A stretch of DNA of 64,000 bases from a virus: IMG/VR virus record IMGVR_UViG_3300017754_001832. One strand, written 5' to 3'. The stretch's first letter is position 1, and every line of letters starts with the position of its first letter. Positions 21,879 to 58,077 of the stretch are shown one piece after another. Made by a program: the position numbers and the translations under genes. The notes under the pieces were generated by a model, which searched no databases, was not told the origin of the DNA, and saw nothing but the letters and a program-made list of their open reading frames with translations.

Positions 21879-22042
21879 TGCGCTGGGAAAGAATCTACCT
21901 GATTGCGTGCCCGACGGTCGGCCTCCACGCCGTGACACGTCGCGCACGCCTCGGGTGGGTCACGATCTACCGCGATCTCGACCGCAAGGTGAAACGCATG
22001 TGGACCGTCCTCAAACCTGAAACCTGCCCGAGAGAAGCATGA
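21878..22042 (+). CDS. hypothetical protein (54 aa)
   Basis: ATG overlaps the GapR-like stop (TGATG). Confidence 0.35.
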   Translation: MRWERIYLIACPTVGLHAVTRRARLGWVTIYRDLDRKVKRMWTVLKPETCPREA

Positions 22043-26525: not shown

Positions 26526-26747
26526 TTAGCCCGGATCGCCCGTGAAGAACTGGCTGTTCGAGTCGTTGAGGCCGGTCTGGACCGCCAGCACGTCAGCTTC
26601 GAGAGCAGTGACGCGAGCGGCGACGGCGGCGAGCGCGGTGTCGATCAGGCCGAAGCCGGTGCGAACCGAGTTCTGGAGCGCGACATGCCCGTAGACGGAC
26701 AGCGGCAGGGAGTAGTTTGCGGTGACGGGCGGGGTGACGGCGGCCAT
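26526..26747 (-). CDS. hypothetical protein (73 aa) with one DSNS motif
   Basis: ORF ending GLNDSNSQFFTGDPG. Confidence 0.4.
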   Translation of the reverse strand: MAAVTPPVTANYSLPLSVYGHVALQNSVRTGFGLIDTALAAVAARVTALEADVLAVQTGLNDSNSQFFTGDPG

Positions 26748-27562: not shown

Positions 27563-28884
27563 TACGTCACCACAAAGATCAATCCGGAGTTGGTGGAGTC
27601 GACCGCGCCGCCGCCCGATCCATCTGTCATCGCGAGAGCCATGAACAGGAAGGCCGTGCCGGGCGCCGTCGTGAAGTCGAGATCGAAGCCGTCGCTCGTG
27701 AACGCATCGAACTCCGCAGCGAGGATTCCGTCAACGGTCGGGTCGCCGAGCGTGAGCAGGCTGCCGTCGCTGTTGCTGTAGTTGATCGAGTTCGACGGGT
27801 CCACGCCGTTCTGGCTCGCCAGCGAATACATGCCCGGCTCGGCTGCGGTGTAGACCGACATGTAGCTCGTGGCGTTGTTCGCGTCCGGACCCGATGGCGT
27901 GTTGATCGTGGTCGAGCCGCCGCCGGCCAGCACGAGGATGTCAGGCGTGAAGCCGACACCCGTGTAGCTCTGCACGCCGGTCGATGTCTTGGTGAGGAAG
28001 TCGTCGAGGTGGAAGTCCACGCCGGGCGCCTTGATCGCGAGCGCCGACATGATGATGCTGGAGTGCGAGGCCGACGGCGTGACGCTGTAGCCGCTCGCGT
28101 CGTAGTCGCCGATGGTGACTTGCGCACCAAGGGTCGGAGACGTGCCTCCATTGAGGAAGACCGCGATCCGGTTGTCGAGCATGCAGAAGTTCGAGCGGTT
28201 GACCGTGAGCGTGCCAGAGCCATCGCGCCGGCCAATGCAACGCTGCGTGTTCGAGCCGTCGTTGAGTCCGATGCCGAACGTGAACAGGCCGAAGCCGGCG
28301 CTGCTCGACGAGAGGCCAGTTGCCGATCTGGCGCAGTGCGCCGCGAACACGATGTCAGGCTCGAAGCCCGGCGCGGTCTGGTCGAGAGCAGACGTGCCCG
28401 TGCCGAGGTCGATATTATTGAGGTGCGCCTGGCAGTCCGATCCGCCGAACACGATGAGCGTGAACTGCCTCGTGTTGCCGAGCGAGATCGGCGCGTTGGT
28501 GAAGTCGAGGCTCACCTCGTCCACGTCGACTCCGGTGAGGTAGACTTCCCAATTCTGACTGAAGGTGCCGCCCGTGTAGACGAGCCGGTTCTCGTATCGC
28601 GTGTTGGATGATTGGACGGAGTTTCCGTCCTGAATAATCATCTTGTGCTCGGCATGTTTCGAGGAGTCGATTGCGCTGTTGCTATCGTCCACGGCCACCG
28701 CGAAGCCGACCGACATCTCAGGCCCGGTCGAAGTGGAGAGCGCCGTGCCTGCCGTCCCGTTGGCCGGGTCGTGCGAGTTCGAGATGAGGACCACCGCAAC
28801 AGGAATCTCGCCGCCCATATCCACGGCGAAGTCCACGACGCCTTTTGCGGCCTGCGTGAAGGTGACGACTGCGACCCTTGCCAT
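27562..28884 (-). CDS. tail fibre / structural protein (440 aa) with one DSNS
   Basis: Ser/Thr/Gly/Asn-rich. Contains AVDDSNSA. Confidence 0.55.
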   Translation of the reverse strand: MARVAVVTFTQAAKGVVDFAVDMGGEIPVAVVLISNSHDPANGTAGTALSTSTGPEMSVGFAVAVDDSNSAIDSSKHAEHKMIIQDGNSVQSSNTRYENRLVYTGGTFSQNWEVYLTGVDVDEVSLDFTNAPISLGNTRQFTLIVFGGSDCQAHLNNIDLGTGTSALDQTAPGFEPDIVFAAHCARSATGLSSSSAGFGLFTFGIGLNDGSNTQRCIGRRDGSGTLTVNRSNFCMLDNRIAVFLNGGTSPTLGAQVTIGDYDASGYSVTPSASHSSIIMSALAIKAPGVDFHLDDFLTKTSTGVQSYTGVGFTPDILVLAGGGSTTINTPSGPDANNATSYMSVYTAAEPGMYSLASQNGVDPSNSINYSNSDGSLLTLGDPTVDGILAAEFDAFTSDGFDLDFTTAPGTAFLFMALAMTDGSGGGAVDSTNSGLIFVVT

Positions 28885-29807
28885 TAGCCGATCCTCGAAC
28901 CCATGAGCGTGATCGAGATGCCGAGCAGCGCACCGAGCGATGCCGGCGCGACGATGCCAAGCCGATCACCAGCGGCGAACGAAGTGGCGCTGGCGAACGT
29001 GAAGACGCCCGTCTGCGATCCGCCGTCGAACGTCAGCGTGCCGATGCTCGATCCGTTCTTCTGGATGTCGAAGGCGATGCTGGCCGAGTTGGAGTCATCC
29101 GTGGTCGGGGTCTCCGCCCACGACTGCGATCCCGTGAGGTTGATCGGCAGGATGAACGGGCGGCTCGCCACGTAGGTCACGCGGCGGTTGGCGTCGCCCG
29201 ATCCACCGACGAAGAAGAACGCGGGGTCGAGGACGCGGAGTCGACCGTAGAGGTCGTCCAGTGCGCCCTGCACCGTGGTCTCATCAGAGTTCGAGTCGCC
29301 GCCGTCGCCCGAGTTGTAGGTCACGCTCGAAGCGTCAGGCGTGCCGCCGACCGAACGGATGCGCGCATAGAGATCGTCGAGCGCGTCGCCGACGTTCGTC
29401 TCTGCCGAGTTGGAGTCTCCCGTGTCGCCCGCATCGTATCCGATGTCCGTGGCGACCAGCGTGCCCGAGCCCGCGATAGCGACCCACGCGGCGCCGTTGA
29501 AACGGTACTTCGTGGAGTCACCGATGTTCCAGACCTCCCACCCTTCGAGCGGCGTGATGTAGGACCACGCGGCGCCGAAGTAGTAGATGATCGAGTTCGC
29601 GGCTCCAGAGTTGGAGTCTTCCGCAGACAGGATGTGACGGTCGCCCTCGGTCGGGGCGTCCGGAAGCTCCGTGACGAAGCTGAAGACCACCGGCTGCGTG
29701 AGCACGGAGAGCTTGGTGAGGTCGGCTGTATAGCCGGGCCCCCAGCCATCCTCGCCGATGCTGTAGCCGACTGATAGTCCAAGACCGGGTGCGCTGGATG
29801 CGGGCAT
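28884..29807 (-). CDS. tail fibre-like protein (307 aa) with four DSNS motifs
   Basis: Repeated module GDxGDSNSxETxVxxALDDLYxRxR, plus AEDSNSG and TDDSNSA. Confidence 0.55.
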   Translation of the reverse strand: MPASSAPGLGLSVGYSIGEDGWGPGYTADLTKLSVLTQPVVFSFVTELPDAPTEGDRHILSAEDSNSGAANSIIYYFGAAWSYITPLEGWEVWNIGDSTKYRFNGAAWVAIAGSGTLVATDIGYDAGDTGDSNSAETNVGDALDDLYARIRSVGGTPDASSVTYNSGDGGDSNSDETTVQGALDDLYGRLRVLDPAFFFVGGSGDANRRVTYVASRPFILPINLTGSQSWAETPTTDDSNSASIAFDIQKNGSSIGTLTFDGGSQTGVFTFASATSFAAGDRLGIVAPASLGALLGISITLMGSRIG

Positions 29808-32560: not shown

Positions 32561-33439
32561 TCACCCGTATGTGTTGACTTGGCCGCCGACCGGATTCGCA
32601 ACAGGAATCCAAGGGCAGCCGCCGAAGTTGTGGATGTTCGAGTGCAGGGCCGTGCAGTGATCCATCTGGTGATTGCACCCGAGGGAGATGCGAACGGCCT
32701 GCGTGGTGAGCAACGTCGTCGGGCCCGTCATGTAGACCGTGTAGCCGTTCGACGACTCCGCCACCTCAAGCACGGTCCTGATCTCGACGTTGCCGGCCGG
32801 CGTCGTCCATTCGATGACACCGCCCTTGAAGTTCTCGATCATGCTCTCCGGTGCGAAGCCATCGGGCAGCCCAAGCTCCACGGCGTTCTCGACTACGGAG
32901 TTCGGGATCACGGTGAAGGTGGCCGCCGCCTTGTTCGCGTTGCACGCCTTCGGCCCGGTCGTGTAGAGCGTGTGCGTGCAGGTGAGTTGGAAGTTCCGGC
33001 GGAGCGCCACGCGCCGCAGCGAGGTCGCCAGAGGTTCGCACGTGAGCACGCACTGATGCGACCCATCGCCTTCGTGCTTGCCGTTGAGCACCCTGCCAAT
33101 CCAGATCGAGCGCCACTCGGTGTCCGCCTCGGACAGGTGGCCGCGCATGATGGTCATGGAGATCGGATACGACGGAGGATATGCGCGATAGAGTTGCGCG
33201 ATAGCCGCCGTCGTGGGCACGCGGAGTTCGAGGCTCTTGCGGTCGAGCGTGCCGCTCGCGCTGATCTTCCCGGCGGAGACCGGAATCGGTTCGTAGGTCA
33301 CGCCATCCTTGACGATGGCCTGCTCCGCGTCCGTGTAGCCGTACACCGAGAGAGTCCCGACACCATACCTGAAGAGGATCAGGTTGACGGGCATCCCGTG
33401 CTCGCGGCTCTCGTCATACTCGTCATAGGCGTTCGTCAT
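32561..33439 (-). CDS. tail protein with a Cys-rich C-terminus (292 aa), resembling the DUF2163 / GTA 'BR0599' tail-hub family
   Basis: Start MTNAYDEYDE overlaps the upstream stop (ATGA). C-terminus LGCNHQMDHCTALHSNIHNFGGCPW. Family assignment from memory. Confidence 0.4.
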   Translation of the reverse strand: MTNAYDEYDESREHGMPVNLILFRYGVGTLSVYGYTDAEQAIVKDGVTYEPIPVSAGKISASGTLDRKSLELRVPTTAAIAQLYRAYPPSYPISMTIMRGHLSEADTEWRSIWIGRVLNGKHEGDGSHQCVLTCEPLATSLRRVALRRNFQLTCTHTLYTTGPKACNANKAAATFTVIPNSVVENAVELGLPDGFAPESMIENFKGGVIEWTTPAGNVEIRTVLEVAESSNGYTVYMTGPTTLLTTQAVRISLGCNHQMDHCTALHSNIHNFGGCPWIPVANPVGGQVNTYG

Positions 33440-35211
33440 CAGACGATCTCCGAGTTCGATTGGTCGTCGCCATCCTTGGCGACCCACGGTTGAGTTTGCA
33501 CAGTGAAGCTGACCTGGCAAACTTCATCCGTCAGGAACTCGAAGGTCGCCTGATCGGTGGCGAAGCGCCACAGCGTCACCCAGCAAATCTTGTCGATGTC
33601 TGCGAGGTCGATGTCCTGCCCAATCGTCTCGGTGAGTTGGATGGTGCTCTGCCCTTCTCCGGTCGAGTCGAGTTCGGCGAAGATGTCCGCGATCTGCTTG
33701 TAGACGATGGTGCCGTCGAGCAGGACAATCGCGATGCCGGCGCCATAGCGCACCGGGTCTTCGGCGTAGGTGCCCGCGAAGTCGACTCCGTCCACCACAA
33801 TGATGTCGTCGCCCGAGAGCATGTCCTGCGCGGCGTCGATGTCATACTCCCACGTCGGCATGTAGAACTCGCGGCACTGGCCGGCGCAACGGAAGAAGAA
33901 CTTCCGCAGCATCTCCGATTGCTCGAAGTCGCGGCCTGTGTAGTTGAGCACGAGACGGCGCTGCTGGAAGTCCTGATCCGCGATGCGGTCCACACGACCG
34001 ACATCGAAGTTGATGAAGATCGTCGGGTGGAAGTCCAGCGTCTCGGGCGGGTCGGCCCAATTCGGCTTCTCCAGCCACAGTTCCCGGTTGTCGAACGTGT
34101 AGAGCGGCGAGGATGTGGGCTCGATTGCCTGCGTGCCCGGCCGCACGAAGAAGTTCGGCGTGATCGTCTGCACCGTGTTGGTGAGCATGTTGCCGCCCGT
34201 CTCGTCGCCAATGAAGGCCGAGAGCGCGGGGAATATCTTGGTGCCGACGGGCCACTCGATCTCGTCGTCCGACTTGAAGAGGACCAGAGGCGCGCTGTTG
34301 GAGTCCTCGCTCTGCAAGTCGATGCGGCGCAGAGACCAATTCGTTCCATCGTAGAGGATGACGTAGGCGTTGGTCTCCGCCAGCCACCACGGGATGTCGC
34401 CGTCGATGTACGCCTCAAGACCGTTCGCCGGGATCACGGCGGAGGTCGTGACATAGCGCGTCATCTCAGGAACGAAGAACCGACCGCGCTGGTTGCCGGT
34501 CATCAGGCGTTGATACTCGCGACGCTCTGCGCGCTTGAGCGCGATCTCGAACTCCAGAGACATACGCGGCGTCTGGCGATACTGGATGCGCTGCTCGCGC
34601 CCGTTCGCCGAGGAGATGACCTCGGTGCGGAACTCGTATTGGATCGTGTAGGACGACGACCAATTAGGACGGTATTCCCAGACCTGATCGGTGAGCGTCG
34701 GCGTGCGGAAGCCCGTCACGTCGAGCGTCAGGATGTCGCCGAGGTTGAAGGCCAGTGTGAAGGAGTCGGACAGGACCGTCGATCCATCGCCAAGCGCCGT
34801 GAACGCGAGGGTTTGAATCTGCAAGGCACTGAGGTTCACAGGAACCGAGCCATCGTAGGAGACCTCGGTCCCGATAGCCGGCGTCACCGTGTTGAGCACG
34901 GCGTCATCGAAGTAGGCGTTCCACACCTGCACGTTGATCGTCGTGTCCGCAGCGAAGGTGCCGTAGGCCAGTTCGCTCGGGATCAGGTAGAAGCGGAAGT
35001 AGAAGTCATCGAACATCGTGAACTGGCGCGAGCCGGTGCGCGTCTCGCCGAGTTCCTGCACCATGAAGTAGTTCGTCCCTGGTCCGAGGACAGAGGACGC
35101 CGTGTCCTCGCCATGGATGCGGGCGCCGGATTGCACGCCGCCAGCGACGCCGGTTGCAGCATTGCCCGGCGTCGTGAAGGTCTCCATGAGAGGCTGGATC
35201 GAGCTAGCCAT
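33439..35211 (-). CDS. tail structural protein (590 aa) with an internal EDSNSA and the C-terminus DDQSNSEIV
   Basis: Long ORF in the tail-tip region. Confidence 0.55.
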   Translation of the reverse strand: MASSIQPLMETFTTPGNAATGVAGGVQSGARIHGEDTASSVLGPGTNYFMVQELGETRTGSRQFTMFDDFYFRFYLIPSELAYGTFAADTTINVQVWNAYFDDAVLNTVTPAIGTEVSYDGSVPVNLSALQIQTLAFTALGDGSTVLSDSFTLAFNLGDILTLDVTGFRTPTLTDQVWEYRPNWSSSYTIQYEFRTEVISSANGREQRIQYRQTPRMSLEFEIALKRAERREYQRLMTGNQRGRFFVPEMTRYVTTSAVIPANGLEAYIDGDIPWWLAETNAYVILYDGTNWSLRRIDLQSEDSNSAPLVLFKSDDEIEWPVGTKIFPALSAFIGDETGGNMLTNTVQTITPNFFVRPGTQAIEPTSSPLYTFDNRELWLEKPNWADPPETLDFHPTIFINFDVGRVDRIADQDFQQRRLVLNYTGRDFEQSEMLRKFFFRCAGQCREFYMPTWEYDIDAAQDMLSGDDIIVVDGVDFAGTYAEDPVRYGAGIAIVLLDGTIVYKQIADIFAELDSTGEGQSTIQLTETIGQDIDLADIDKICWVTLWRFATDQATFEFLTDEVCQVSFTVQTQPWVAKDGDDQSNSEIV

Positions 35212-36281
35212 TACGCACCCGCAGAGTTCGAGTCTTCCTCACCAACAGCGTAGGCGTAGCCCACCCACAGCGAGGTCTCGAACTCTGGCGGGTTCGAGCC
35301 GCTGCCGGTCGACTCGGGCATCGTGACTTCGGAGCGGCGCGCGTGCGAGGGGAAGACCCGCCACAGCATACCGCCGACGATGATCTCTGCACCCGGCTGG
35401 AGGTCTTGCATGTGGACGTGGCGAACGCCGGCCGGGCGACCGATCGGTCGGAACTCCACATCGCCGACGATGGGGTCCGCGTTGTAGAGGTTGATCGGCG
35501 AGAGCGTGTTGAGGCTCGCGAACGGCGAGCGACCGCGTGCCAGATAACCATCGTTGATCGCGTCGTTGTAGCCGCCGATCACACCGTTCACCGGGAAGCT
35601 CAGCAGGGGCGTGCTGCTCGTCGCAGTCGAGCCCACGAAGAAGCGCCACGGGTAGGCGTTGTCCGCGTGATCCACATGCACGCCGCCACTCTCCGCCGCA
35701 GCCCTGCGGCTCTGACGGCCCGAGAAGAGGTACTTCATGTCGAGGTCGTAGTAGACTCGAGTCGAAGAGGAGTTGCCGGGTCCATCGGTGGCCGAGATGC
35801 ACTCGCCGCCCTGATAGTCGCCGACCTTCTCCATGTTGCCGATATACATGTGCCGGTAGAGGTTCGAGCCATACTCCACGATGATCGCGATGTAGGGCTC
35901 GGGGGTGAGCGCCCCGATCAGGTGGACTTGCGTCGGCAGAACGACGGCCGGCGATCCTGCACCGACGACCGGCGACGCGAAGATCGCGGAGCCCGCCTGC
36001 AATGCGGTCACAGCGGAGTTCGATTCGGAGTCGTACTGATACGCCGCACAGGTGAGGGTGTGCGTGCTGCCGGCCACCGAGGCGGTGACTTGGAACGGGA
36101 TCGCATCGCTCGCCTCGAAGGCCGAGTTCGATCCGGAGTTCGAGTCGCCGCCCTGCGGCCTGCGGAGGATCGGTTGCGTGGGAGTGGTGAGGTCCGTCTC
36201 CCATCCGATCAATGCTGCGAACGTGCCGACCAGAGCCGGCACGTCCGTAATCGCGCTGATGGAGTTTACTTGGTATGTCAC
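35211..36281 (-). CDS. tail structural protein, paralog B (356 aa) with three DSNS/SNS motifs, one at the C-terminus (EEDSNSAGA*)
   Basis: Paralogous to 36278..37342 (similar length, shared MxYQ...N start, YIGN/FIGG core). Confidence 0.55.
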   Translation of the reverse strand: MTYQVNSISAITDVPALVGTFAALIGWETDLTTPTQPILRRPQGGDSNSGSNSAFEASDAIPFQVTASVAGSTHTLTCAAYQYDSESNSAVTALQAGSAIFASPVVGAGSPAVVLPTQVHLIGALTPEPYIAIIVEYGSNLYRHMYIGNMEKVGDYQGGECISATDGPGNSSSTRVYYDLDMKYLFSGRQSRRAAAESGGVHVDHADNAYPWRFFVGSTATSSTPLLSFPVNGVIGGYNDAINDGYLARGRSPFASLNTLSPINLYNADPIVGDVEFRPIGRPAGVRHVHMQDLQPGAEIIVGGMLWRVFPSHARRSEVTMPESTGSGSNPPEFETSLWVGYAYAVGEEDSNSAGA

Positions 36282-37342
36282 GAGTTGGACTCCTCGTTCG
36301 CGATGAATGCACTGTTACTATCTTCTGGCCCGCGTGTCACGGCGAACCAATTTCCAAGTGCGGTGCGGAAGGTGTTCTGGAAGACGATGTGGACGGAGTT
36401 CTCCGCCTGGATCACATTCTCGATTGTCTGGCCTCGGCCGGGCACGCGGTAGACGCCATCCAGCACGCCGAAGGTCTGGTCGCTCGGGCTGGCCTGCGTG
36501 AGCGTGAAAGGGGTGAGCGTGAAGCTATCGCCATACGCCACCTGCTCACGCTTGCTCACGTCCTCGTAGCCGTACTCGCCGCTGCCCGAGTTCGATTGCA
36601 CAGAGTTGAGGACCGCGCCGAGCCCGAGGCCAACGCCGAAGAACGCCGGGCCGATGCAGGCCGGCGCCGACGTGTCATTCTTCGAGACCTTCAGCCAGTT
36701 GCCAGAGGGATCGAGCATCCACGCGCTCGGCATGTAGCCGCTCGACCCGGTCGACGAGTTGCTGTTGGAGAAGCAGAAGGCGGAGTGATCGTCGGAGACC
36801 GAGGAGTGCGAGGTCGACTCCGAGGAGCCGCCCGATCCACACGAGCCGCCGATGAACATCGGATAGGTGTAGACCGTGGGGTCCGCGTAGGGGAGGAAGA
36901 AGCCGGCATACATCGTCTCGTAGACCGTGCCGACCTGGACAACGATGATGAAGCGACGACCGTTCGCGATGAACCAATAGCGCATCGTGTTCGGGCGCGT
37001 GAACATCTTGACCGGATACGGGGTCATGTTGACGTGCAGGTCGTAGCTGGCAGCCGACTCCACGATGCCCGTGCAGCCGCGCATGTACCACGTGCTCACA
37101 TCGCCAGCGACGTTCGAGTCATCGCGCTTCATCGCCACATAGACAGACGCATCTGCCGCGAGGCCGGGGCCACGCAGCACGACGCCGAGAGCGGCGTCTG
37201 CGGAGTCGCTGTTGGAGTCGGAACCCCATGCGATCTCCCAATTCTGTCCGAGGGCCACGAGTTCCGCGTCCGTCGTGATGAACGAGATGAACTTGTCCCA
37301 AAGATCGGCGTGATTGGTCGCCGTGCCTGTCTGGTAAGCCAT
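36278..37342 (-). CDS. tail structural protein, paralog A (354 aa), possibly a distal tail protein, with two DSNS motifs plus the C-terminus EESNS*
   Basis: Immediately downstream of the tape-measure gene. Confidence 0.55.
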   Translation of the reverse strand: MAYQTGTATNHADLWDKFISFITTDAELVALGQNWEIAWGSDSNSDSADAALGVVLRGPGLAADASVYVAMKRDDSNVAGDVSTWYMRGCTGIVESAASYDLHVNMTPYPVKMFTRPNTMRYWFIANGRRFIIVVQVGTVYETMYAGFFLPYADPTVYTYPMFIGGSCGSGGSSESTSHSSVSDDHSAFCFSNSNSSTGSSGYMPSAWMLDPSGNWLKVSKNDTSAPACIGPAFFGVGLGLGAVLNSVQSNSGSGEYGYEDVSKREQVAYGDSFTLTPFTLTQASPSDQTFGVLDGVYRVPGRGQTIENVIQAENSVHIVFQNTFRTALGNWFAVTRGPEDSNSAFIANEESNS

Positions 37343-43748: not shown

Positions 43749-44588
43749 TTAGGCGTAGGCGGGTCGGCCAAGGGCGTAGATCGCCGCGTAGCTGGTGGGC
43801 TTCAGGATTTCGACCTGGAACGGGATGACGTTCCACTCGTCCGACTTCAGCGCGTAGTCTCCGTTCGGGGAGACCTTGATCCACGGGAAGAAGTAGTCGA
43901 TGTCGTCGCCGACCGGGTTGAAGGCGATGAACTGCATCGCGCCTTCGACCGGCTCCGAACCCGAGAGGATGCGGTTGTAGGTCGAGGGACGGATCGTGTA
44001 CGTGACCTGAAGGTCCGTGCCGTCCGCGATGCCACCGCCAACGATGACGTACAGGCGGCCCGTCTCCGGATCGACCGTGTAGTCCGTGCCGTAGACGAAC
44101 TCCGTGTTGCCCGCCGAGTTCGAGTCGTTCTCGACAACCGTGAAGGCGCCGCCCGAGTTCGAGTCGGTGTCGCCACCGGCCACGAGGCCCTTCGCGCCGG
44201 CAGGGCGCGTGGTCGAGATGCCAAGCTGGTAGTAGAGGCCCTGCTCGACATCGTTGACTTCTTCGGCGGTGATCGTCGCACCAGCTTCCGTCACGACTTC
44301 TTCCTCGCCGAAGAAGAAGATGGCGACGTTCTTGATGTCGATGTTGTCGGTCGTGAAGGTGCCCGAGCGGTTGACCTGGAGAGCAATGCTCTCGTCCTTC
44401 TCGCGGATGCCGTGATCCGAGTTGAAGTGGTCGAGAACCTCTTGCTCGATGGTGAGCGAGAACTCCGGTGTGTTCCCGATATACCGGAAACCCTTTGGGG
44501 TTTGGGTGCCCGTGACAAAGCGGGCGAAACTGATTTCGCCACGACCCAGCGTGTAGTTGTTAGTGACAATGCCTTCGGTGGCGGCCAT
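43749..44588 (-). CDS. major tail protein, gpV-like (about 279 aa) with two DSNS motifs
   Basis: Start MAATEGIV after the RBS GGAGAT. Located between gpU-like and gpG-like genes. Confidence 0.6.
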   Translation of the reverse strand: MAATEGIVTNNYTLGRGEISFARFVTGTQTPKGFRYIGNTPEFSLTIEQEVLDHFNSDHGIREKDESIALQVNRSGTFTTDNIDIKNVAIFFFGEEEVVTEAGATITAEEVNDVEQGLYYQLGISTTRPAGAKGLVAGGDTDSNSGGAFTVVENDSNSAGNTEFVYGTDYTVDPETGRLYVIVGGGIADGTDLQVTYTIRPSTYNRILSGSEPVEGAMQFIAFNPVGDDIDYFFPWIKVSPNGDYALKSDEWNVIPFQVEILKPTSYAAIYALGRPAYA

Positions 44589-44665
44589 GGTGGTATCTCC
44601 TGCTGGCGGTGGTCCGTGTTCCTTACGTGTTACAGCCTCGCTGGCGTTGAAAGTCAACGCCTCAC

Positions 44666-45220
44666 TTAGCTGTACGGATTCTCCAAGTCCTCGGCGATCT
44701 TCAGCCGTATCGCGAGCCAGAAGTACGCCTTGCCCGAGACTTCATCCGGAGGGCGGCAGACCGGGCTCCCGATCTGCATTGAGATGACCCCCGGCTTACC
44801 ATTGGCCCCGCGAACACTCAACAGGGCAGGCCCAACGCCGGCCGGCGAGCGGCCCTGATCCAGCCGCTTCTTCTCTTTCGCGAGGCAGCGGCACACGTCG
44901 GCCACCAGAAGGTAGGCCGGATCGGTGGGGTTCGCCTTGTCGTCTTTGCAGAACCCCTGGATCGAGATGTCCCAATCGCCGGTCGAGTAGGGGGAGGATG
45001 CCGCAGAGTCGACCTGATCGTTGGCGATAGGCGTCTCCAGAATGGCGATCATCGGCAGGGGGTCGTTCTCCCCGTAGATGTTGCGGCCACGGAAGACGCG
45101 GCCCGCCAGATCGTGGTGGTAGCCGGTCGGCCCCGAGTTGGAATCCTCGATAGCGATGGTCTCCAGAAGCTCAGTGAGCTTGCGCATGACGCGGAGGCGG
45201 AAGGGGTAGGTCTCGGTCAT
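44666..45220 (-). CDS. tail terminator, gpU-like (184 aa) with one DSNS
   Basis: Size and position. Confidence 0.45.
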   Translation of the reverse strand: MTETYPFRLRVMRKLTELLETIAIEDSNSGPTGYHHDLAGRVFRGRNIYGENDPLPMIAILETPIANDQVDSAASSPYSTGDWDISIQGFCKDDKANPTDPAYLLVADVCRCLAKEKKRLDQGRSPAGVGPALLSVRGANGKPGVISMQIGSPVCRPPDEVSGKAYFWLAIRLKIAEDLENPYS

Positions 45221-45819: not shown

Positions 45820-46260
45820 TTACTCCTCCGGAGGAAGAGGCAGCCCGGCCGAGTCTGCGGAATCCTGGCGCGTGACGCGAGCCGTGATCGTTTCCTGATC
45901 GTGCGGCTCGACCACGTCGATGTAGTACGACTCGCCACTCGTGACGGAGATCACATCGCCGCGCGCCGGGCTGATGCCCGCGTCTTCGAGTTCGGTGCGC
46001 CAGAAGATAACCCTCGGGACCGAGTCGAACCGCTCTGCGCTGTTGAGTGATGTGCCGGCTTGATCGCCGAGCTTCATGCCCTTCTCGTGGATGCGAACTT
46101 CCACGACGGGCAGGCCGTGCATGTTGCCAGAGGTCGAGCCCGAGAACGACGTGCTGTTGGAGTCGTTCTCGGGTGATCCGCCGACGAGATAGACGGCGCG
46201 GACCTTCAAAGTCTGGTGGACCGTTTCGCGGGCCGCCCGTTTGATGTCGCGCCATCCCAT
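45820..46260 (-). CDS. head-tail joining protein, FII-like (146 aa) with one DSNS
   Basis: Position. Confidence 0.4.
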   Translation of the reverse strand: MGWRDIKRAARETVHQTLKVRAVYLVGGSPENDSNSTSFSGSTSGNMHGLPVVEVRIHEKGMKLGDQAGTSLNSAERFDSVPRVIFWRTELEDAGISPARGDVISVTSGESYYIDVVEPHDQETITARVTRQDSADSAGLPLPPEE

Positions 46261-46730: not shown

Positions 46731-47801
46731 TTAGGAGTTGGAGTCTTCTTCCACGACCCGAGCATGGAAGCTGCGGTTCGGGAACGGCGAGATGGCGAGC
46801 GGCGCCGACTGCGTCATGATGTTCATCGCGGACGGGTCTTGCTCGACCCACATCTTCGTGAACACCGGCTGAGCGATCAGGTTCTCGATCTCCAGGATCG
46901 CGCCGTAGGCCGACACGCCACCGTAATCGGCAGCCGTGATGACCAGGTCACGCGGGTTCATGATGTCCACGTGGTTGCCGCTGTTGTCCTCGTAGAAGTC
47001 CTCGTAGAGGACCAGCGTGAGGCCCGGCAGCGAGCCGACCACGGTCCACGGAGCATCCGGCGTGCGCGCTTGGATCAGCGAACGCGCGATGGAGTTGCCC
47101 TCGCCGCCACGGACGTTGGTGTCCATGAGTTCGAGCAGCTTCGTGTTCGAGCGCATGACGCGCCAGACTTCACGACCCATCGTGACAACCGAGCCGCGTC
47201 CGCCGAAGTCAGCGTTCGCCATCGCGTCGGTGTATTCCTGGAGTTGCGCCACGATGTCCGTGGTGGAGTCCCAGAGGCCGGTCGTCTTGATGTCCGTGAG
47301 CGCGGTGTCGCGGCCATAGTCAACTTCGACGGTCGGGCCGTCCTGATACTCGACCAGCACCTTGCCGTAGGTCACGGCTTGGAAAGCCATGATCTCCTGG
47401 CGCCGCTCGATGATCTTGCGGTGATGCTCAAGGATCGCGGCGATCTCCGCGTCGCGGTTCTGAGCCGGCGAGCGAGGCGAGTCGTCGTAGAGGTTGCCGG
47501 GGCGGCGCGTGAACTGCTCGCCGGGGATCACCGGGTCTTTCAGCTTGATATAGGCCGGGCTGAAGGACGCGGCGGTCGAGCCACGGCGCCGGTAGGACGG
47601 GCGGCCGGGGTTCTGCGGCAGAGAGAACGTCGCGACCTCGCGGTTGCCGACGATCTTTTCCCAGATGATCGCTTGCTTGTCCGACTGGAAGATGTTGGAC
47701 GAGAAGCCGCCGAGATTCCGCCAGTAGTTGCTGACGGTTTCGAGGCGCTGGTCGCGGAATACGCCCAGCAGCGCACGGGGGGAGAGAACTTCGAGAGACA
47801 T
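46731..47801 (-). CDS. major capsid protein, lambda gpE-like (356 aa) with a C-terminal ...VVEEDSNS* extension
   Basis: RGSTAASFSPAYIKLKDPV and IMTQSAPLAISPFP align with lambda E segments (RGGSTSEFTPGYVKPKHEV, TMIQSAPLMLLADP). Confidence 0.75.
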   Translation of the reverse strand: MSLEVLSPRALLGVFRDQRLETVSNYWRNLGGFSSNIFQSDKQAIIWEKIVGNREVATFSLPQNPGRPSYRRRGSTAASFSPAYIKLKDPVIPGEQFTRRPGNLYDDSPRSPAQNRDAEIAAILEHHRKIIERRQEIMAFQAVTYGKVLVEYQDGPTVEVDYGRDTALTDIKTTGLWDSTTDIVAQLQEYTDAMANADFGGRGSVVTMGREVWRVMRSNTKLLELMDTNVRGGEGNSIARSLIQARTPDAPWTVVGSLPGLTLVLYEDFYEDNSGNHVDIMNPRDLVITAADYGGVSAYGAILEIENLIAQPVFTKMWVEQDPSAMNIMTQSAPLAISPFPNRSFHARVVEEDSNS

Positions 47802-47840: not shown

Positions 47841-48290
47841 TTAGGACGGGGTGCCGGGGGTTGCGGTTGCGATCTGATCGACGCCGAGGGGCGTGCGGTC
47901 GAGAGCGCGGCGGAGGAGGGCGAGAGACCACGAAGCATCTTTCGCGATGACATCGTAGTTGAAGACGCCGTCCGTGTAGTAGGACACGTCCGTCACGTCG
48001 GCGCCGACTTCCGAGTTGGAGTCGCTGCCGCCCGAGTTGGAGTCATCGACCGCCACGACGGCGGAGGTGATGCCAACCGGCTCTTGCGAGCCGTCGGTGG
48101 CCGTCTGGACGGACGGAACGATCAGGCCCGTGCCGGTGACGCGGCCAACGAGCGTGTTGACGGGGATGTCAACAGTCGTCTTGCCACGGCCAACCATGGT
48201 GGGGGCCTTGAACCACAGACCGTTCGTCTGCGTGAAGGTGTCCGAGCTTTGAACCGGGACGCCGGGCGGGTTTGAAGTGAGGGCGGTCAT
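47841..48290 (-). CDS. head decoration protein, lambda gpD-like (149 aa) carrying a DDSNSGGSDSNSE doublet
   Basis: TFTQTNGLWFKAPTMVGRGKTT resembles the gpD N-terminus. Located between the protease and the major capsid gene. Confidence 0.6.
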   Translation of the reverse strand: MTALTSNPPGVPVQSSDTFTQTNGLWFKAPTMVGRGKTTVDIPVNTLVGRVTGTGLIVPSVQTATDGSQEPVGITSAVVAVDDSNSGGSDSNSEVGADVTDVSYYTDGVFNYDVIAKDASWSLALLRRALDRTPLGVDQIATATPGTPS

Positions 48291-53721: not shown

Positions 53722-54337
53722 CTTCGTCCACCTCTATCGAGGGGTCGGGCCCGTGGTCGAGCGCGCTCAGCGTGTTCTGATGCTTCGGCATCTCGACAAG
53801 AGCCCGGTAGAGGTCTTCACGGAGCGCGTCGACTCTGGCGATCAGGGCGAGGTACTGCTCGCGCGGCATCCCCGCTTCACGCTCCACGTCGTCGGCCCAC
53901 ACCTGCGTCGTCTGCTTGATCCGCTTGAACGCCTCGGCGAGGACCGAGAGCACGCTCTCGGTCGGCCAGAGTTCGCCGGCTGCCTGCTGATACTTGAGCC
54001 GTTTGTTTTCCGCGTCCCAGAACTCTTTGCGGAGCATCGGGGGAAGTTCCGTCGGGTTCATGGTCTTGATGTAGTCGCGGATGTCGAAGCGCGGCTTGAT
54101 GAGGTAGGAGAGCGCCAGCAGCGGGTCGTAGAGTTCGGAGCCCGACATCTTCCCGATGGCAGGGCAATCGCTCAGCCGTTTCTTGACGGTCTTGCGATCC
54201 ATGCGCGTGAAACCGCCAAGCCACGTGAGCGAGACCCCCTTGCGGAGCTTCGCCCAATCGGTCTCGACCGTTTCGCGCTCGACCTCCTCGGCTTCGTTGC
54301 CGAGCAGATCGTCGAGGTTGCGGCGGCTGCGCGCCAT
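53708..54337 (-). CDS. terminase small subunit-like protein (209 aa)
   Basis: Immediately upstream of TerL. HTH-like GVSLTWLGGFTRMDRKTVKKRL and a YDPLLALSYL segment resembling Nu1/P27-type small terminases. Confidence 0.5.
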   Translation of the reverse strand: MARSRRNLDDLLGNEAEEVERETVETDWAKLRKGVSLTWLGGFTRMDRKTVKKRLSDCPAIGKMSGSELYDPLLALSYLIKPRFDIRDYIKTMNPTELPPMLRKEFWDAENKRLKYQQAAGELWPTESVLSVLAEAFKRIKQTTQVWADDVEREAGMPREQYLALIARVDALREDLYRALVEMPKHQNTLSALDHGPDPSIEVDEDEGA

Positions 54338-54909
54338 CAGACTTCACCCTTCATGTATCGGAGCACGGCTTCGATCTCCTCGACGGTGCCGTTGCCCTTT
54401 AACTCGTTAGCACGCCACGAGATTACACGCACGTTGCCTTTAACGTATCCGAGGGCGGGCACGATCTTGTCAAGACTCGGGCTGGTTGGGCAGTTACGCC
54501 CTCCGCCTACTTTTAGTTCGAGCCCAAGGACCGGACACCTCTCAGGGAGCACAATGTCTGAAGGCTCGATGTCGAAAGGAAGACCCGCTTCCTCCGCACG
54601 AGCCTTGGCCCCGCGCCACGTCACCTTCGCCCACTGTTCCGGCCTTCGGTATAACGAGTTCAACTGTTTCTTGACCTTCTCGCGAAAAGCAGGATCGGCT
54701 TCATACTTCTTAACGTGCCAATCGGCCCTACGGGTGTTATCTTTCTTGCGTTGAATTGGGTCAGCCTTCCGGCTGCGATCAACGGCTTTCTGTTTCTCTT
54801 GGCGGCTTGCCCACGCGGCAGGGTCCGCTTTGATAGCGGCGTACCTTTCCCTGTCTCGATCCGCGTCTCGCTTCGTTCGGGTTCTCACCGCCAGTGTTCC
54901 TTTATCCAT
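54337..54909 (-). CDS. HNH endonuclease (190 aa) adjacent to the terminase, a possible packaging cofactor
   Basis: CPVLGLEL...NCPTSPSLDKIVPALGYVKGNVRVISWRAN is an HNH-type motif. HNH genes beside the terminase are known in cos phages (HK97 gp74). Confidence 0.6.
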   Translation of the reverse strand: MDKGTLAVRTRTKRDADRDRERYAAIKADPAAWASRQEKQKAVDRSRKADPIQRKKDNTRRADWHVKKYEADPAFREKVKKQLNSLYRRPEQWAKVTWRGAKARAEEAGLPFDIEPSDIVLPERCPVLGLELKVGGGRNCPTSPSLDKIVPALGYVKGNVRVISWRANELKGNGTVEEIEAVLRYMKGEV

Positions 54910-55658
54910 GGGCTGATCGCCTGCCGCTCAGGCTTCCAGGGGCTATGGGGTCCGTTGCACTGCACGACTCGTGCCCCTGCCGGCAGGGGTCCACCCGTGG
55001 GCTCGTGCTTCAGTTGATCGACGAGATTGCGCTGGCGCCACGAGGCGTAGTGCCAGAGGTTACGCGGGCAGATGTCGTCGCGATAGCAGTAGAGGCCGTC
55101 CTCGCGAGTGATCTTCGTGATCTTGTGGTTGGCCTTGATCGCCAGCCACGCCTGATCGCTGCCGCCGTAGCGCAGGCCGCGACCCTTGACGTTGTTCTGC
55201 CAGAGGTTGCGGTCGAACTCGGTGAAGACCTCGGGAGCGACGCCGTGGTCCGCGATGACGATGGAGCCGTTCACCGGCTGCGGGCCAAGCTCGACGCCCG
55301 ACATGAGGAACGGCTCGGTGCGACCGAAGATCGGACTGCAGTCGTCAACGAGGACCATGTCGAGATCGAACCACGACCAGCGCGGCTCGGGGATGATGTT
55401 GCGGAACGAGTTGTCGAAGCACTTCAGACGAACGAGGCACTTGCCGCCTTGATCGGCGAGGTCATTCCACAGCGGCACGACCTGGTCGCCCTCTGCCTTG
55501 AAACGCTCGCGAGTCTTCTTCGAGTCGGAGATCACCACGATCCGGTACGGGATGTGGAGGTTCCGACCGAGCATGTTCTTCATTATCCGGATGTAGTCGT
55601 CGGAGAACTTGTCTCCCCACGACCACAGGATGATCGGCAGCACGTTAGGCGATGTCAT
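54885..55658 (-). CDS. glycosyltransferase, GT-A fold with a DXD motif (257 aa)
   Basis: Start MTSPNVLPI. FDLDMVLVDD (DXD) and a Rossmann-like N-terminus. Family not assignable by eye. Confidence 0.45.
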   Translation of the reverse strand: MTSPNVLPIILWSWGDKFSDDYIRIMKNMLGRNLHIPYRIVVISDSKKTRERFKAEGDQVVPLWNDLADQGGKCLVRLKCFDNSFRNIIPEPRWSWFDLDMVLVDDCSPIFGRTEPFLMSGVELGPQPVNGSIVIADHGVAPEVFTEFDRNLWQNNVKGRGLRYGGSDQAWLAIKANHKITKITREDGLYCYRDDICPRNLWHYASWRQRNLVDQLKHEPTGGPLPAGARVVQCNGPHSPWKPERQAISPWIKEHWR

Positions 55659-56265
55659 GTTCTTGTCCCTCTGGGAGATATGGGTAGGCTTTGAGCGCGG
55701 AGTCGGGATTGAGGTTGTAGACAGCAACCCCACGTTTTTTGAGATCGGCAGGCTGGCGCGCGAGGCCCCACTGCTGGCGTTTGTAGCGATCATTCCAATC
55801 CTCAGTCAGCGTGCCCGTGAAGTGGCGTTCCTTGTTCGGGCCGGGCTTCACGTCCACGCCCACCAGAAGGATGCGGCGCGATCCACGGAGCACCGCGTAG
55901 TTGATGGCGAGCGCGGTCGTCGTGAATGTTCCGCGTAGTTCGGCCGGGTTCTTCGAGAGCCCGCCGCCGGCCACCTTCGGGATGAACCGGATGCGGTCGT
56001 CGTGAAGCTCGGGCGGCAGGGGCTTCGGGTCCGTGTAGAGGATCAGCGGCCCCTTGTAGCCAGACAGGTCTGGCGTGCGGCGCGCGTACCGATGATCGCC
56101 GATCATCAGCACCTCGGCGTGAGGCACCTTCAGGTAGCCGTCCTTGACCGCTATCGTCTTCAGGCCCGCGATGCGCTCGAAGTTGAACGAGTTCACCGAC
56201 GGGCCCGAGGCGACGATAGCGACCGTGCAGCCAGCCCAATCACGAGGGACGACGTGAGACTTCAT
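55645..56265 (-). CDS. DUF115 / Maf-like (MptE-like fold) protein, paralog 1 (206 aa)
   Basis: TVAIVASGPSVNSF...IAVKDGY...ILLVGVDVK. Same motif family as 26834..27562. Confidence 0.5.
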   Translation of the reverse strand: MKSHVVPRDWAGCTVAIVASGPSVNSFNFERIAGLKTIAVKDGYLKVPHAEVLMIGDHRYARRTPDLSGYKGPLILYTDPKPLPPELHDDRIRFIPKVAGGGLSKNPAELRGTFTTTALAINYAVLRGSRRILLVGVDVKPGPNKERHFTGTLTEDWNDRYKRQQWGLARQPADLKKRGVAVYNLNPDSALKAYPYLPEGQEHDIA

Positions 56266-56831
56266 TCGTCAGTCGAACCGATGCCATCATTCTTGAACGG
56301 GCGCACGAGCACCGCGAGTTCAACGCCGATGCGCTTGGGCTTGATCGGATCAACCTCGACCACCTCGGCGAAGTGCTTCTTCAGGCGCTCCATCCACCAC
56401 TTCGTCGGCTTGACGATGAGGTGCGCGTTGCGACCGTCGGCGAGGGTCTTGTTCGCCAGGCGTTGCGAGATCACCAGCAGGCCGCGCACCTTAACGAGCG
56501 AGGCGATGTGCTCCAGCACGTTGTCGAGCATGTCCGGTTCTACGTGCTCCAGAACGTCGTTGCAGGTGACGAAGTCTGCCGGCTTCGGCATCTGCGGCGC
56601 GGTGACGGGGTCATAGCCCTGTGTCGCCACCATAGGCGCGCGGGCCGCGATCTCAGCGAGCAGGTTGCCCTTGCCGCAGCCGTAGTCGAGATACGAGAGG
56701 GCGCCGGCACCCGTCATGTAGTCGAGCACGCGGTCGGCCCACGCATCGCCCTTGCCGCCGTACTTCGCCTTGCGGCCATGAAGCTCAGCGTTGAGCGCGC
56801 GATACTGTTCGGAGATGAGTGGCTTGGTCAT
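56262..56831 (-). CDS. class I SAM-dependent methyltransferase, paralog 1 (189 aa)
   Basis: LDYGCGKGN (motif I) and FVTCNDVLEHVE. Confidence 0.65.
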   Translation of the reverse strand: MTKPLISEQYRALNAELHGRKAKYGGKGDAWADRVLDYMTGAGALSYLDYGCGKGNLLAEIAARAPMVATQGYDPVTAPQMPKPADFVTCNDVLEHVEPDMLDNVLEHIASLVKVRGLLVISQRLANKTLADGRNAHLIVKPTKWWMERLKKHFAEVVEVDPIKPKRIGVELAVLVRPFKNDGIGSTDE

Positions 56832-57367
56832 TTGATCCTCGTGATGAGCACAGCAAGTTCGGATGCGGCTTTCGTCTCGTCGAGGATAGGAACCTCTTCG
56901 ATTCTGTAGGGGCCTGCGAAAGCGACGGCGATGGTCTGGAGCCACCACTCGCGCGGCTTCACCAGCGGGTGCGTGTCGCGCTTCTTCGGCGAGCGGTTGC
57001 GCAGCGAGATCGTGATGAGGGCGCCGTTGCGAGCGCAGCGGCGGATGTCGGTGAGGACCGCGTCATACATGCCGACCTCTACGTGCTCCATCACGTCGAT
57101 GCAGGTCACGAAGTCGGCGGGCATCGGCGTGATGTCGCCGAACGCAGGCTCATACGACGTGCCGGTGAAGTGCAGGCCGTCGGGGTGTTCGAGAACGTGG
57201 TACGCGAGGGCGCTTCGACCAGCGCCGTAGTCGAGGATCGACTCCGAGGCCGTCTGGTGCATGTAGGCCACGACACGGTCGGCCCATCGGTGCCCGATGA
57301 TGCCGAAGTTCGGGTCGCGGTCGTGCAGCGCCTTCAGACGCTTGCGGTGCTCGACGGTGATGGTCAT
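56828..57367 (-). CDS. class I SAM-dependent methyltransferase, paralog 2 (179 aa)
   Basis: LDYGAGRSA and FVTCIDVMEHVE. Paralogous to the previous gene, with ATGA start/stop overlaps. Confidence 0.65.
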   Translation of the reverse strand: MTITVEHRKRLKALHDRDPNFGIIGHRWADRVVAYMHQTASESILDYGAGRSALAYHVLEHPDGLHFTGTSYEPAFGDITPMPADFVTCIDVMEHVEVGMYDAVLTDIRRCARNGALITISLRNRSPKKRDTHPLVKPREWWLQTIAVAFAGPYRIEEVPILDETKAASELAVLITRIK

Positions 57368-58077
57368 TGCTTGTTCGCTCGCTGCGCTTCGATCTCTGCC
57401 GCCGCGTGGACCCACAGGTCTGCGAAGCGAACGCTCTTGTGGTTGTAGAACCACGGGCCACCGTTGGTGTAGTGGATGCCGGCCGGCGGCTGCGCGCTCT
57501 CCCACTCATACTCGCCTTCGAGCCAGTTCCACGTCTGCGGAACGCCGAGGATTTGATGTTCCGCGATCCAGTTGAAGCGGTGCAGGTCGGCGGCCTTGGC
57601 GCTGTTCACATACTCCGGTGTCAGTTGCCGACACTGCGGGTTGTTGAACAGCATCAGCGACGACCAATTCTTGCGGGGGTACGCGACCTGGGGCTGCCCA
57701 TCCATCTTGAAGGCGGCCTTGGGCGTGTAGTCGTGCTTCACGAGGGCGACGCCGTACTGCACCGGCTGCACCTTGTCCTGCTCGCCACGGACGAAGTCGA
57801 GGAGGCTCTTGATGTCGCGGGTGAAGAGGAAGTCGCAATCCACGAAGAGGGCCGTGCCCTTGTAGCCGCACAGGTAGGGCACGAGGAAGCGGGTGTGGGC
57901 GAACTCGGTCGAGGCGGGCTCGTCTGCCGGGCGGGTGTAGATACCCCGCTCCCGCAGCTTGTCCTGCTTCAGGCCGACGATGGCGAGCGGGATGGATGTG
58001 TGGGCGCGGAGCGAGGCAGCGCAGACCTCGAACGCGGCGTGTTCTCTGGCGTCGTAGCCGATGAAGACGTGTAGCAT
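57364..58077 (-). CDS. glycosyltransferase, GT-A fold with a DXD motif (237 aa)
   Basis: Start MLHVFIGYD. FVDCDFLF (DXD). Preceded by the conserved CAGCACTAGAGGGAACTGACATG element. Confidence 0.45.
   Translation of the reverse strand: MLHVFIGYDAREHAAFEVCAASLRAHTSIPLAIVGLKQDKLRERGIYTRPADEPASTEFAHTRFLVPYLCGYKGTALFVDCDFLFTRDIKSLLDFVRGEQDKVQPVQYGVALVKHDYTPKAAFKMDGQPQVAYPRKNWSSLMLFNNPQCRQLTPEYVNSAKAADLHRFNWIAEHQILGVPQTWNWLEGEYEWESAQPPAGIHYTNGGPWFYNHKSVRFADLWVHAAAEIEAQRANKQ

Follow-up and report, generated by a model that had tools for sequence, protein, structure and literature searches.

A recurrent DSNS motif in virion proteins and a candidate virion glycosylation island in a Casjensviridae-like phage from IMG/VR

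Results

A gene island and a recurrent virion motif

The IMG/VR virus record IMGVR_UViG_3300017754_001832 was analysed as one stretch of 64,000 nucleotides, which we refer to as the window. Two features of its minus strand are the subject of this paper. The first is an island of five consecutive genes that fill positions 54885..58077 exactly and encode, in gene order, a predicted glycosyltransferase (GT2), two predicted methyltransferases that use S-adenosylmethionine (SAM; MTa and MTb), a Maf-like protein (DUF115a) and a second predicted glycosyltransferase (GT1). A paralogue of the Maf-like protein, DUF115b, is encoded next to the tail-fibre genes (Table 1). The second feature is a tetrapeptide, Asp-Ser-Asn-Ser (DSNS), that recurs in proteins of the virion module. 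A preliminary description of this DNA, made from the letters alone, had pointed to both features and had suggested that the island might modify the virion proteins that carry the motif.

The DSNS motif in virion proteins

Eighteen in-frame minus-strand copies of DSNS were found in 12 virion-module proteins between 26.5 and 48.1 kb. In the initial gene set we counted 16 copies where composition predicts 0.10, an enrichment of 159-fold; DSNS was by far the most enriched tetrapeptide of that set, and the highest count in any of 2000 per-protein shuffles was 3. Thus the recurrent motif noted in the preliminary description is real. It marks head, tail and fibre proteins alike, and none was found in the 1661-residue tape measure protein, the portal, the protease, the terminase, the replication proteins or the island proteins. 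The copies in the distal-tail proteins lie at window positions 34294, 35223, 36135, 36311 and 37208. A short open reading frame (ORF) 3' of DUF115b carries its tag near the C-terminus, and tagged counterparts of this ORF follow DUF115b in four related loci (L087, L088, L090 and L091).

The codons that spell the motif differ among copies, with TCG, TCC, AGC, TCT and AGT for Ser and GAC and GAT for Asp. A DNA-level repeat as the source of DSNS was rejected on this ground, and because the codons vary we conclude that selection acts on the peptide and not on the DNA.

Whether a tag was an insertion or an extension was judged wherever outgroup homologues could be aligned. Major capsid proteins of the outgroups end in RARVVA, whereas those of the clade that bears the island end in RVVEEDSNS, EEDSNSGG or DEDSNSAGS. 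In the tail terminator the tag falls within six residues (EDSNSG) that are inserted with respect to 11 outgroup homologues, and the tags of the tube protein and of a 146-residue head-tail module protein (P146) lie in stretches of about six residues that are missing from all outgroup homologues. The double tag of the head decoration protein is kept in four clade members (L020, L082, L008 and L006), and C-termini of distal-tail proteins read EEDSNSAGA and EESNS.

Some sites carry variant tags (S-S-N-S, E-S-N-S or Q-S-N-S), and the recognised core may be (D/E/S)-S-N-S. Variants were also noted within the distal-tail region 33439..37342, where two proteins end in PEDSNSAFIANEESNS and DDQSNSEIV and a third holds DSESNS; clade member L008 has SSNS at a site where the window has DSNS. 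The residue that follows DSNS is mostly A, G, D or E, and one further tag stands at the very C-terminus. A PglB-type D/E-X-N-X-S/T or an N-X-S/T sequon was rejected, Ser or Thr being found two residues after the Asn in 1/17 tags. The fibre protein at 28884..29807 carries a repeat module of the form G-D-x-G-DSNS-x-E-T-x-V-x-x-A-L-D-D-L-Y, and a 694-residue tail protein of clade member L088 contains a tag array of tandem F-D-S-N-S-N-S-G-G (about 9110..9200 of that locus).

Co-distribution of the island and the motif

The TerL protein of the window is 54% identical to that of Rhizobium phage RHph_X2_30 and about 52% identical to that of Ruegeria phage DSS3-P1; judged by sequence, the phage is Casjensviridae-like and belongs to the Chi-like group. 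The same five island genes occur in the same order in four metagenomic contigs (L006, L008, L020 and L081), and a further contig (L082) holds the 3' end of the island, DUF115a and GT1, at its edge. A tree built from TerL groups these loci and the window in a single deep, monophyletic clade. Identities of TerL within it are as low as 59%, compared with 54 to 56% for the nearest outgroups without the island. DUF115b is kept at the same place after the tail genes in five clade members.

We compared 74 TerL-anchored IMG/VR loci. About 70 related loci that lack the island hold 0 or 1 DSNS each, and multiple copies occur only in island-bearing loci, with 5 and 7 per ±10-kb window. Counts in two other clade members were 2 (L006, a partial locus) and 5 (L082). 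The fibre regions of five clade members hold 10 to 18 tags each when the SSNS variant is counted. Tag positions differ partly between clade members while the motif stays DSNS, which argues for recognition by a common factor rather than for a role in local structure. We also scanned IMG/VR for paired DSNS-coding DNA. The matches listed were mostly low-complexity Asp/Ser/Asn repeats, and among them dispersed DSNS tags were found only in this clade.

Predicted functions of the island proteins

GT1 has no Pfam match at E<=1, and the gathering threshold of GT8 is not reached. In an alignment of 25 homologues D98-L-D100 is invariant, as are D45, G166, D168 and Q169, the last three within the motif G-S-D-Q; G236 is nearly so. 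The family consensus includes the P-W of a C-terminal G-x-x-x-P-W, and the His of this motif is not conserved. A GT1 profile matched glycogenin with E=0.0055, the DxD, G-S-D-Q and G-x-x-x-P-W motifs lining up. The AlphaFold2 (AF2) model of GT1, with a predicted local distance difference test score (pLDDT) of 93.8, gave GlyE, glycogenin and 3tzt, all of GT8, as its top Foldseek matches in the PDB (E 2e-8 to 1e-7, template modelling (TM) score about 0.55). By this model GT1 shows the fold and the motifs of GT8 enzymes, namely a GT-A fold, DXD and G-x-D-Q. Both GlyE and glycogenin work on protein-linked glycans or lengthen them. An exhaustive hidden Markov model (HMM) search placed GT1 in a family of 4584 cluster representatives at 50% identity, with many tandem duplications or fusions. 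The GT1 proteins of the clade hold about 25 extra residues not found in GT1 of other lineages.

For GT2 the best family match is phrog_28018, of unknown function (E=3.8e-58), and its match to Pfam GT8 (E=0.0037, 17.3 bits) is under the cut-off of 24.3 bits. Across 22 homologues there is no change in D80-C-D82, NWSS or H-x-T-x-G-G-P-W, the residues H202, G206, G207 and W209 included. At least 7718 proteins belong to this family, and some of them have a PF01501 match or are named 'LPS biosynthesis glycosyltransferase' (LPS, lipopolysaccharide); a precomputed PF01501 match was present in 4/120 listed homologues. From its motifs and these PF01501-bearing relatives, we assign GT2 as GT8-like. Paralogy of GT1 and GT2 was rejected, since hhalign gave a probability of 0.6% and no relation beyond the DXD stretch. 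Single-sequence PDB searches with GT1, GT2 and MTb returned nothing useful.

Two proteins of about 400 residues (P0116 and P0144, in L092 and L093) join a GT2-type domain to a C-terminal MTb-type methyltransferase domain; MTb and the methyltransferase part of P0116 share 47% identity (E=2e-41). Such natural fusions suggest that GT2 and the methyltransferase act in one pathway or on the same product. Bacterial homologues about 53% identical to GT2 are found in Roseicyclus persicicus (L084, GCA_012395815.1, 5341..8696) and in L085/L086 (7327..8672). Their genes either come immediately behind genes of the KdsD, KdsB and KdsA types or share an overlap with a CTP_transf_3 cytidylyltransferase gene, and these neighbours tie the GT2 family to sugars of the 3-deoxy-D-manno-oct-2-ulosonic acid (Kdo) type.

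DUF115a and DUF115b are 25% identical to each other (E=4e-12). Their scores against Pfam PF01973 (MptE-like), 16.0 and 25.6 bits, are both under the cut-off of 34.6 bits, and both match phrog_4603, annotated 'alpha-2,3-sialyltransferase' (E=3.5e-13 and 7.5e-33, respectively). Profile searches of PDB sequences with the two proteins gave no significant match (Maf 5mu5, E=0.9; WbbM, E=1.7), so that the DUF115 assignment rests on predicted structure. The fold nearest to the AF2 model of DUF115a (pLDDT 90.6) is the flagellin glycosyltransferase Maf (5mu5), followed by the archaeal pterin kinase MptE (score 13.3), a Campylobacter GT42 sialyltransferase (11.9) and mammalian GT29 sialyltransferases (about 9). 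The model thus gives DUF115a the sialyltransferase-like fold of the Maf central domain. Its conserved motifs are A-S-G-P-S and L-A-I-N-x-A-x-x-x-G-x-x-x-I-x-L-x-G-x-D. The flanking N- and C-terminal domains of the full Maf architecture are missing from DUF115a and DUF115b, which have 206 and 242 residues against 632 in 5mu5, and on the model we describe DUF115a as a catalytic-core-only 'mini-Maf'. The same fold recurs in numerous uncharacterised proteins of phages, 180 to 225 residues long; the DUF115a subfamily itself is restricted to the island clade. By its modelled fold DUF115a probably transfers an ulosonic acid activated with cytidine monophosphate (CMP). CMP-Kdo is as plausible a donor as pseudaminic acid, because the fold family uses CMP-sugars and bacterial GT2 homologues lie beside KdsD-KdsB-KdsA or a CMP-sugar synthetase. 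Every Gram-negative host provides CMP-Kdo.

MTa and MTb share 36% identity (E=3e-32) and reach 28.3 and 55.4 bits against Methyltransf_23, above the cut-off of 27; they are the only island proteins that pass Pfam cut-offs. Motif I for SAM binding reads L-D-Y-G-A-G-R in MTa and L-D-Y-G-C-G-K-G in MTb. The PHROG placement of the methyltransferases is phrog_24759, which MTb matches with E=1.7e-24.

The preliminary description had read the island as two glycosyltransferases with DXD motifs and GT-A folds, a Maf/DUF115-like protein and two paralogous SAM methyltransferases, and had named HMM searches as a check. The pair of methyltransferases is borne out by Methyltransf_23 and by their mutual identity, and the pair of glycosyltransferases by the model and motifs of GT1, whose best matches are GT8, and by the motifs of GT2. 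The HMM check gave a divided answer: PF01973 stayed below its cut-off, as did GT8 for GT2, and GT1 had no family at all, while structure models and profiles support the Maf-like and glycosyltransferase assignments.

Layout of the island

The island lies between the replication and packaging modules, as had been described. Genes for a DNA polymerase, a VRR-NUC protein and an SNF2 helicase are on its 5' side, and on its 3' side genes for an HNH endonuclease, TerS and TerL lead into the complete morphogenesis module, which is also on the minus strand. Of the five coupled genes with ATGA overlaps that the preliminary description reported, the coupling stands and ATGA is present at three junctions (GT2/MTa, MTa/MTb and MTb/DUF115a); the fourth, DUF115a/GT1, is a 14-nucleotide overlap with no ATGA. 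The second Maf-like gene was also found where it had been placed, directly after the fibre genes, and the start codon of DUF115b overlaps the stop codon of the preceding gene, for a 440-residue tail protein (TAATG).

The G+C content of the island is 63.4%, compared with 63.0% for the window. No minus-strand terminator was detected in a scan of the gene run from the island to the structural genes, and no signal peptide or hydrophobic segment in the six proteins (the island five and DUF115b; maximum KD19 1.58). In agreement with the preliminary description, no sugar-nucleotide genes were found among the scanned window ORFs of >=140 residues. No integrase match was obtained among the window ORFs scanned with Pfam or PHROGs.

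The HNH endonuclease gene between GT1 and TerS overlaps its neighbour by GTGA. It is missing at the equivalent place in L006 and L081/L082, where TerS follows GT1 directly, and for this reason it looks like a later, mobile homing-type insertion and not a part of the island.

Related cassettes in other phages

Related cassettes, each with a mini-Maf, an MTb-type methyltransferase and a GT1- or GT2-type glycosyltransferase, were found in three more phage lineages. In Caulobacter jumbo phage CcrSC (L001, NC_048048.2) the cassette lies at 8482..12968, directly after the tail fibres, and runs from gp516 to gp511, with the endolysin gene next; other Bertelyvirus phages share this cluster. Its gp516 is 34% identical to DUF115b, gp513 is 36% identical to GT2 and gp512 is 46% identical to MTb; gp515 and gp514 are unknown proteins of about 280 residues, and gp511 is a GT9 (heptosyltransferase-like) protein. 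In a SU10-like podophage (L003) a cassette just 5' of the terminase, portal and capsid genes encodes a GT-D enzyme, an FkbM methyltransferase, MT23, a mini-Maf, a GT2-family enzyme and two GT1-family proteins. HK97-like siphophages are represented by L083, with a cassette between the portal and head-tail connector genes, and by 'Tetraselmis viridis virus S20' (L094, NC_020840.1), in which a cassette of about 5.6 kb at 5311..10894 sits between the capsid genes and head closure. The S20 cassette encodes two mini-Maf proteins, a GT-D enzyme, an MTb-like methyltransferase (43% identical to MTb), a GT2-family enzyme, an FkbM methyltransferase and a GT1-family protein. S20 is supposed to be a virus of algae, yet its 39-kb genome is that of an HK97-like siphophage.

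All these clusters are like the island in their orthologous families and in their placement beside or inside structural modules, and unlike it in their partners (GT9-like, GT-D, GT2-family and FkbM methyltransferase proteins) and in showing no DSNS in the parts examined. They are annotated only as hypothetical or 'alpha-2,3-sialyltransferase', and we found no published function for them. Our literature search likewise returned nothing on DSNS tags, this island, the homologous Caulobacter-phage cluster or Casjensviridae glycosyltransferases.

The host is Gram-negative-type and probably alphaproteobacterial. Best matches to genes of Caulobacter and Brevundimonas phages are what suggests a Caulobacter-like host, and the C-terminal part of the fibre at 28884..29807, which by eye resembles gp518 of CcrSC, hints at Caulobacterales. 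Cluster names gave no pointer to the host.

Other features of the window

Elsewhere on the plus strand the window encodes two DNA methyltransferases, a deoxycytidine monophosphate (dCMP) deaminase, a second HNH endonuclease and an SPFH/Band-7 protein (Table 1). In the left arm (1..9000, plus strand) the bias in G+C at third codon positions (GC3) is about 0.65 to 0.70, compared with about 0.85 in the structural arm; ORFs there mostly lack a family match and the gene models are uncertain.

Table 1. Features of the window named in the text, with positions, strands and family matches.
Feature	Position	Strand	Remarks
GT2	57364..58077	-	237 residues; predicted GT8-like DXD glycosyltransferase; first island gene
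MTa	56828..57367	-	179 residues; class-I SAM methyltransferase
MTb	56262..56831	-	189 residues; class-I SAM methyltransferase, MTa paralogue
DUF115a	55645..56265	-	206 residues; 'mini-Maf', predicted sialyltransferase-like fold
GT1	54885..55658	-	257 residues; predicted DXD glycosyltransferase, GT-A fold, distantly GT8-like, no Pfam model
DUF115b	26834..27562	-	242 residues; second mini-Maf paralogue, coupled to tail-fibre genes
Head decoration protein	47841..48290	-	phrog_49; two DSNS
Major capsid protein	46731..47801	-	phrog_29; C-terminal DSNS (ends RVVEEDSNS)
146-residue head-tail module protein (P146)	45820..46260	-	phrog_4858; one DSNS
Tail terminator	44666..45220	-	phrog_5078; one DSNS
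Major tail (tube) protein, Ig-like domain	43749..44657	-	phrog_807; two DSNS
Three distal-tail proteins	33439..35211, 35211..36281, 36278..37342	-	phrog_1082 (tail assembly), phrog_687; five DSNS and variants
Tail fibre protein	28884..29807	-	phrog_7049; four DSNS, at residues 64, 131, 171 and 238
440-residue tail/fibre-module protein directly 5' of DUF115b	27562..28884	-	no PHROG match; DSNS at residue 67
73-residue ORF 3' of DUF115b	26526..26747	-	DSNS at residue 62
HNH endonuclease	54337..54888	-	phrog_3322; between GT1 and TerS
DNA methyltransferase	13818..14753	+	phrog_1008
MT-A70 adenine methyltransferase	23623..24291	+	
dCMP deaminase	20359..21288	+	
Second HNH endonuclease	10991..12088	+	
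SPFH/Band-7 protein	22039..22587	+	

Discussion

The reading that we favour is tag-directed virion glycosylation, in which the island and DUF115b form a putative cytoplasmic kit that modifies virion proteins with sugar nucleotides of the host. We give this proposal about an even chance of being correct. Virions assemble in the cytoplasm, and the enzymes of the kit would be soluble, expressed late and active there on exposed parts of virion proteins, with DSNS in loops and C-termini as the probable acceptor tag. GT1 or GT2 would transfer a hexose from a uridine diphosphate (UDP) sugar onto one residue of the tag, in the simplest case Ser, and the other GT8-like enzyme would lengthen the chain. 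The mini-Maf enzymes would then attach a CMP-activated ulosonic acid with 8 or 9 carbons, which could be Kdo or of the pseudaminic/legionaminic type, with DUF115b perhaps serving the fibres, and MTa and MTb would methylate the sugar or sugars. Candidates for the tag reader are the two elements restricted to the clade, namely the DUF115a subfamily and the extra stretch of about 25 residues in clade GT1. The benefit to the phage would be shielding or adhesion; this benefit, the action of the enzymes on the tags, the modified residue and the sugars are inferred. More tentatively, and at somewhat less than an even chance, we propose that DSNS is a portable sequon on at least 12 external virion proteins, and that the six-gene kit reads it and adds a methylated coat of glycans that contain ulosonic acid.

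The main argument from context for a role in the virion is the repeated placement of such cassettes beside or inside morphogenesis genes. The link between the island and the tagged proteins that the preliminary description suggested is strengthened: island and tags co-occur perfectly among the 74 TerL loci and the clade members, and the tags are insertions or C-terminal extensions. The association is seen in one clade only.

Several observations weigh against glycosylation of the tags. DSNS fits no known glycosylation sequon, and neither DSNS nor any other over-represented tetrapeptide was found in the examined parts of L003, L083 and S20 or in the fibre region of CcrSC, of which 20 kb were examined without a DSNS; hence the tag is not general to such cassettes. 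The His expected after G-x-D in a Maf-type enzyme is not conserved in DUF115a orthologues, and a GT2 profile had no significant match among PDB sequences. Bacterial GT2 homologues sit in polysaccharide or Kdo gene clusters and bear names of LPS glycosyltransferases. Finally, because all phages that bear the island and the tags fall in one TerL clade, their co-occurrence counts as a single evolutionary event and could be coincidental.

The GT2 homologues lead directly to the first alternative, in which the island modifies a glycoconjugate of the host (LPS core or O-antigen, capsule or flagellin), to block superinfection or to keep progeny from being caught on receptors, and the tags are unrelated to it. 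The 'LPS biosynthesis glycosyltransferase' names, the KdsD-KdsB-KdsA or CMP-sugar synthetase neighbours in polysaccharide clusters and the flagellin glycosyltransferase as the nearest fold to DUF115a would all fit such a role. Chi-like members of Casjensviridae are flagellotropic, and modification of the host surface would suit a phage of this group. Additionally, the helicase-TerS slot is a site of accessory content in RHph_X2_30, where accessory genes, a regulator and an integrase take the place of the island. Against these points, the island holds no membrane protein, flippase or Gtr-type component, and since no scanned ORF matched an integrase, lysogenic conversion is unlikely. The island is part of an unbroken minus-strand run with the packaging and structural genes in which no terminator was found, its counterparts in other lineages are embedded in the morphogenesis module, and translation of DUF115b is coupled to that of a fibre gene. 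Host-surface modification also leaves the joint retention of tags and island across a deep clade unexplained. We consider it unlikely, though the strongest of the alternatives.

A second alternative separates the motif from the enzymes: DSNS would be an unmodified structural or adhesive motif, for instance a loop that binds Ca2+ or the host, and the island would serve another purpose. Loops rich in Asp, Asn and Ser can bind cations. Furthermore, the confinement of island and tags to a monophyletic clade makes their association effectively one observation, and the cassettes of other lineages lack DSNS. An unmodified motif is difficult to reconcile with one strict tetrapeptide in 12 unrelated folds, extreme C-termini included, with tag positions that turn over among relatives while the motif is constant, and with the restriction of dispersed tags to this clade among the IMG/VR matches listed. 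We judge this explanation quite improbable.

The weakest alternative, to which we attach very little weight, is that the island hypermodifies phage DNA with glycosylated, methylated bases as protection against restriction. We know of no Maf- or sialyltransferase-type enzyme that acts on DNA, which speaks against this role, as do the match of MTa and MTb to the small-molecule-type Methyltransf_23 rather than to DNA methyltransferase families, the location of other phages' cassettes inside head-tail modules or after fibres, and the finding of no thymidylate-synthase-like hydroxymethylase, base-kinase or DpdA-type gene in a Pfam and PHROG scan that covered small ORFs non-exhaustively. In its favour are the adjoining replication genes (SNF2 helicase, VRR-NUC and DNA polymerase), the dCMP deaminase and two DNA methyltransferases elsewhere in the window, and the classical association of phage glycosyltransferases with DNA modification, as stated in part of one report (PMC12619734). 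Both DNA hypermodification and host-surface conversion had been named as alternatives in the preliminary description; the placement in modules and the failure to find a partner pathway or membrane component weaken them, and both are retained at low weight.

Tag-directed virion glycosylation would have one close counterpart. To our knowledge, mycobacteriophages are the only phages shown to glycosylate their virions with enzymes of their own, a system reportedly described by Freeman et al. in Cell Host Microbe in 2023. According to the parts of two reports that describe it, glycans are placed on the C-termini of the capsid and tail-tube subunits of mycobacteriophages by means of phage glycosyltransferase and methyltransferase genes (PMC12619734, PMC13313380). 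Here too, glycosyltransferases and methyltransferases are encoded by the phage, modification would occur in the cytoplasm during assembly, and the acceptors named in those parts of the reports, capsid and tail tube, are both tagged with DSNS, the capsid tag being a C-terminal extension. The likeness is drawn by description, and there are four differences. The proposed system has a Gram-negative-type host, a Casjensviridae-like family and Maf-like enzymes of predicted sialyltransferase fold; a single tetrapeptide marks at least 12 virion proteins, among them fibres, the terminator and the decoration protein; and three of the enzyme families lack a curated model or function.

The individual enzymes have counterparts of their own. 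Maf enzymes (DUF115/PF01973, 5mu5) perform cytoplasmic O-glycosylation of protein with a CMP-activated sugar, a nonulosonic acid that they transfer to Ser or Thr of flagellin, and DUF115a and DUF115b would likewise O-glycosylate protein from a CMP-activated sugar. In contrast to Maf, these two proteins consist of a core of about 200 residues only, compared with 632 residues in 5mu5, and score under the Pfam cut-off; the catalytic His is not conserved in DUF115a orthologues, and the proposed acceptors are virion proteins and not flagellin. Retaining glycosyltransferases of GT8 such as glycogenin and GlyE of the pneumococcal serine-rich-repeat pathway share with GT1 the GT-A fold, DXD, G-x-D-Q and G-x-x-x-P-W, and with GT2 the motifs D-C-D and H-x-T-x-G-G-P-W. 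The similarity of GT1 to GT8 is nevertheless marginal by profile and TM score, and GT1 belongs to no Pfam family.

If virion glycosylation directed by DSNS is correct, it would be the first tag-directed system of its kind outside actinobacteriophages and would extend the phenomenon to phages of Gram-negative-type hosts. It would also supply a minimal four-residue acceptor tag together with a small set of soluble enzymes, useful for glycoengineering and protein engineering. A function would follow for the GT1 family, for the phage mini-Maf/phrog_4603 proteins and for phrog_28018, and there would be an explanation for the gene clusters that neighbour structural genes in jumbo phages of Caulobacter and Brevundimonas and in other phages. 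For the phages themselves, a coat of glycans would affect adsorption, resistance to proteases or grazers, and recognition.

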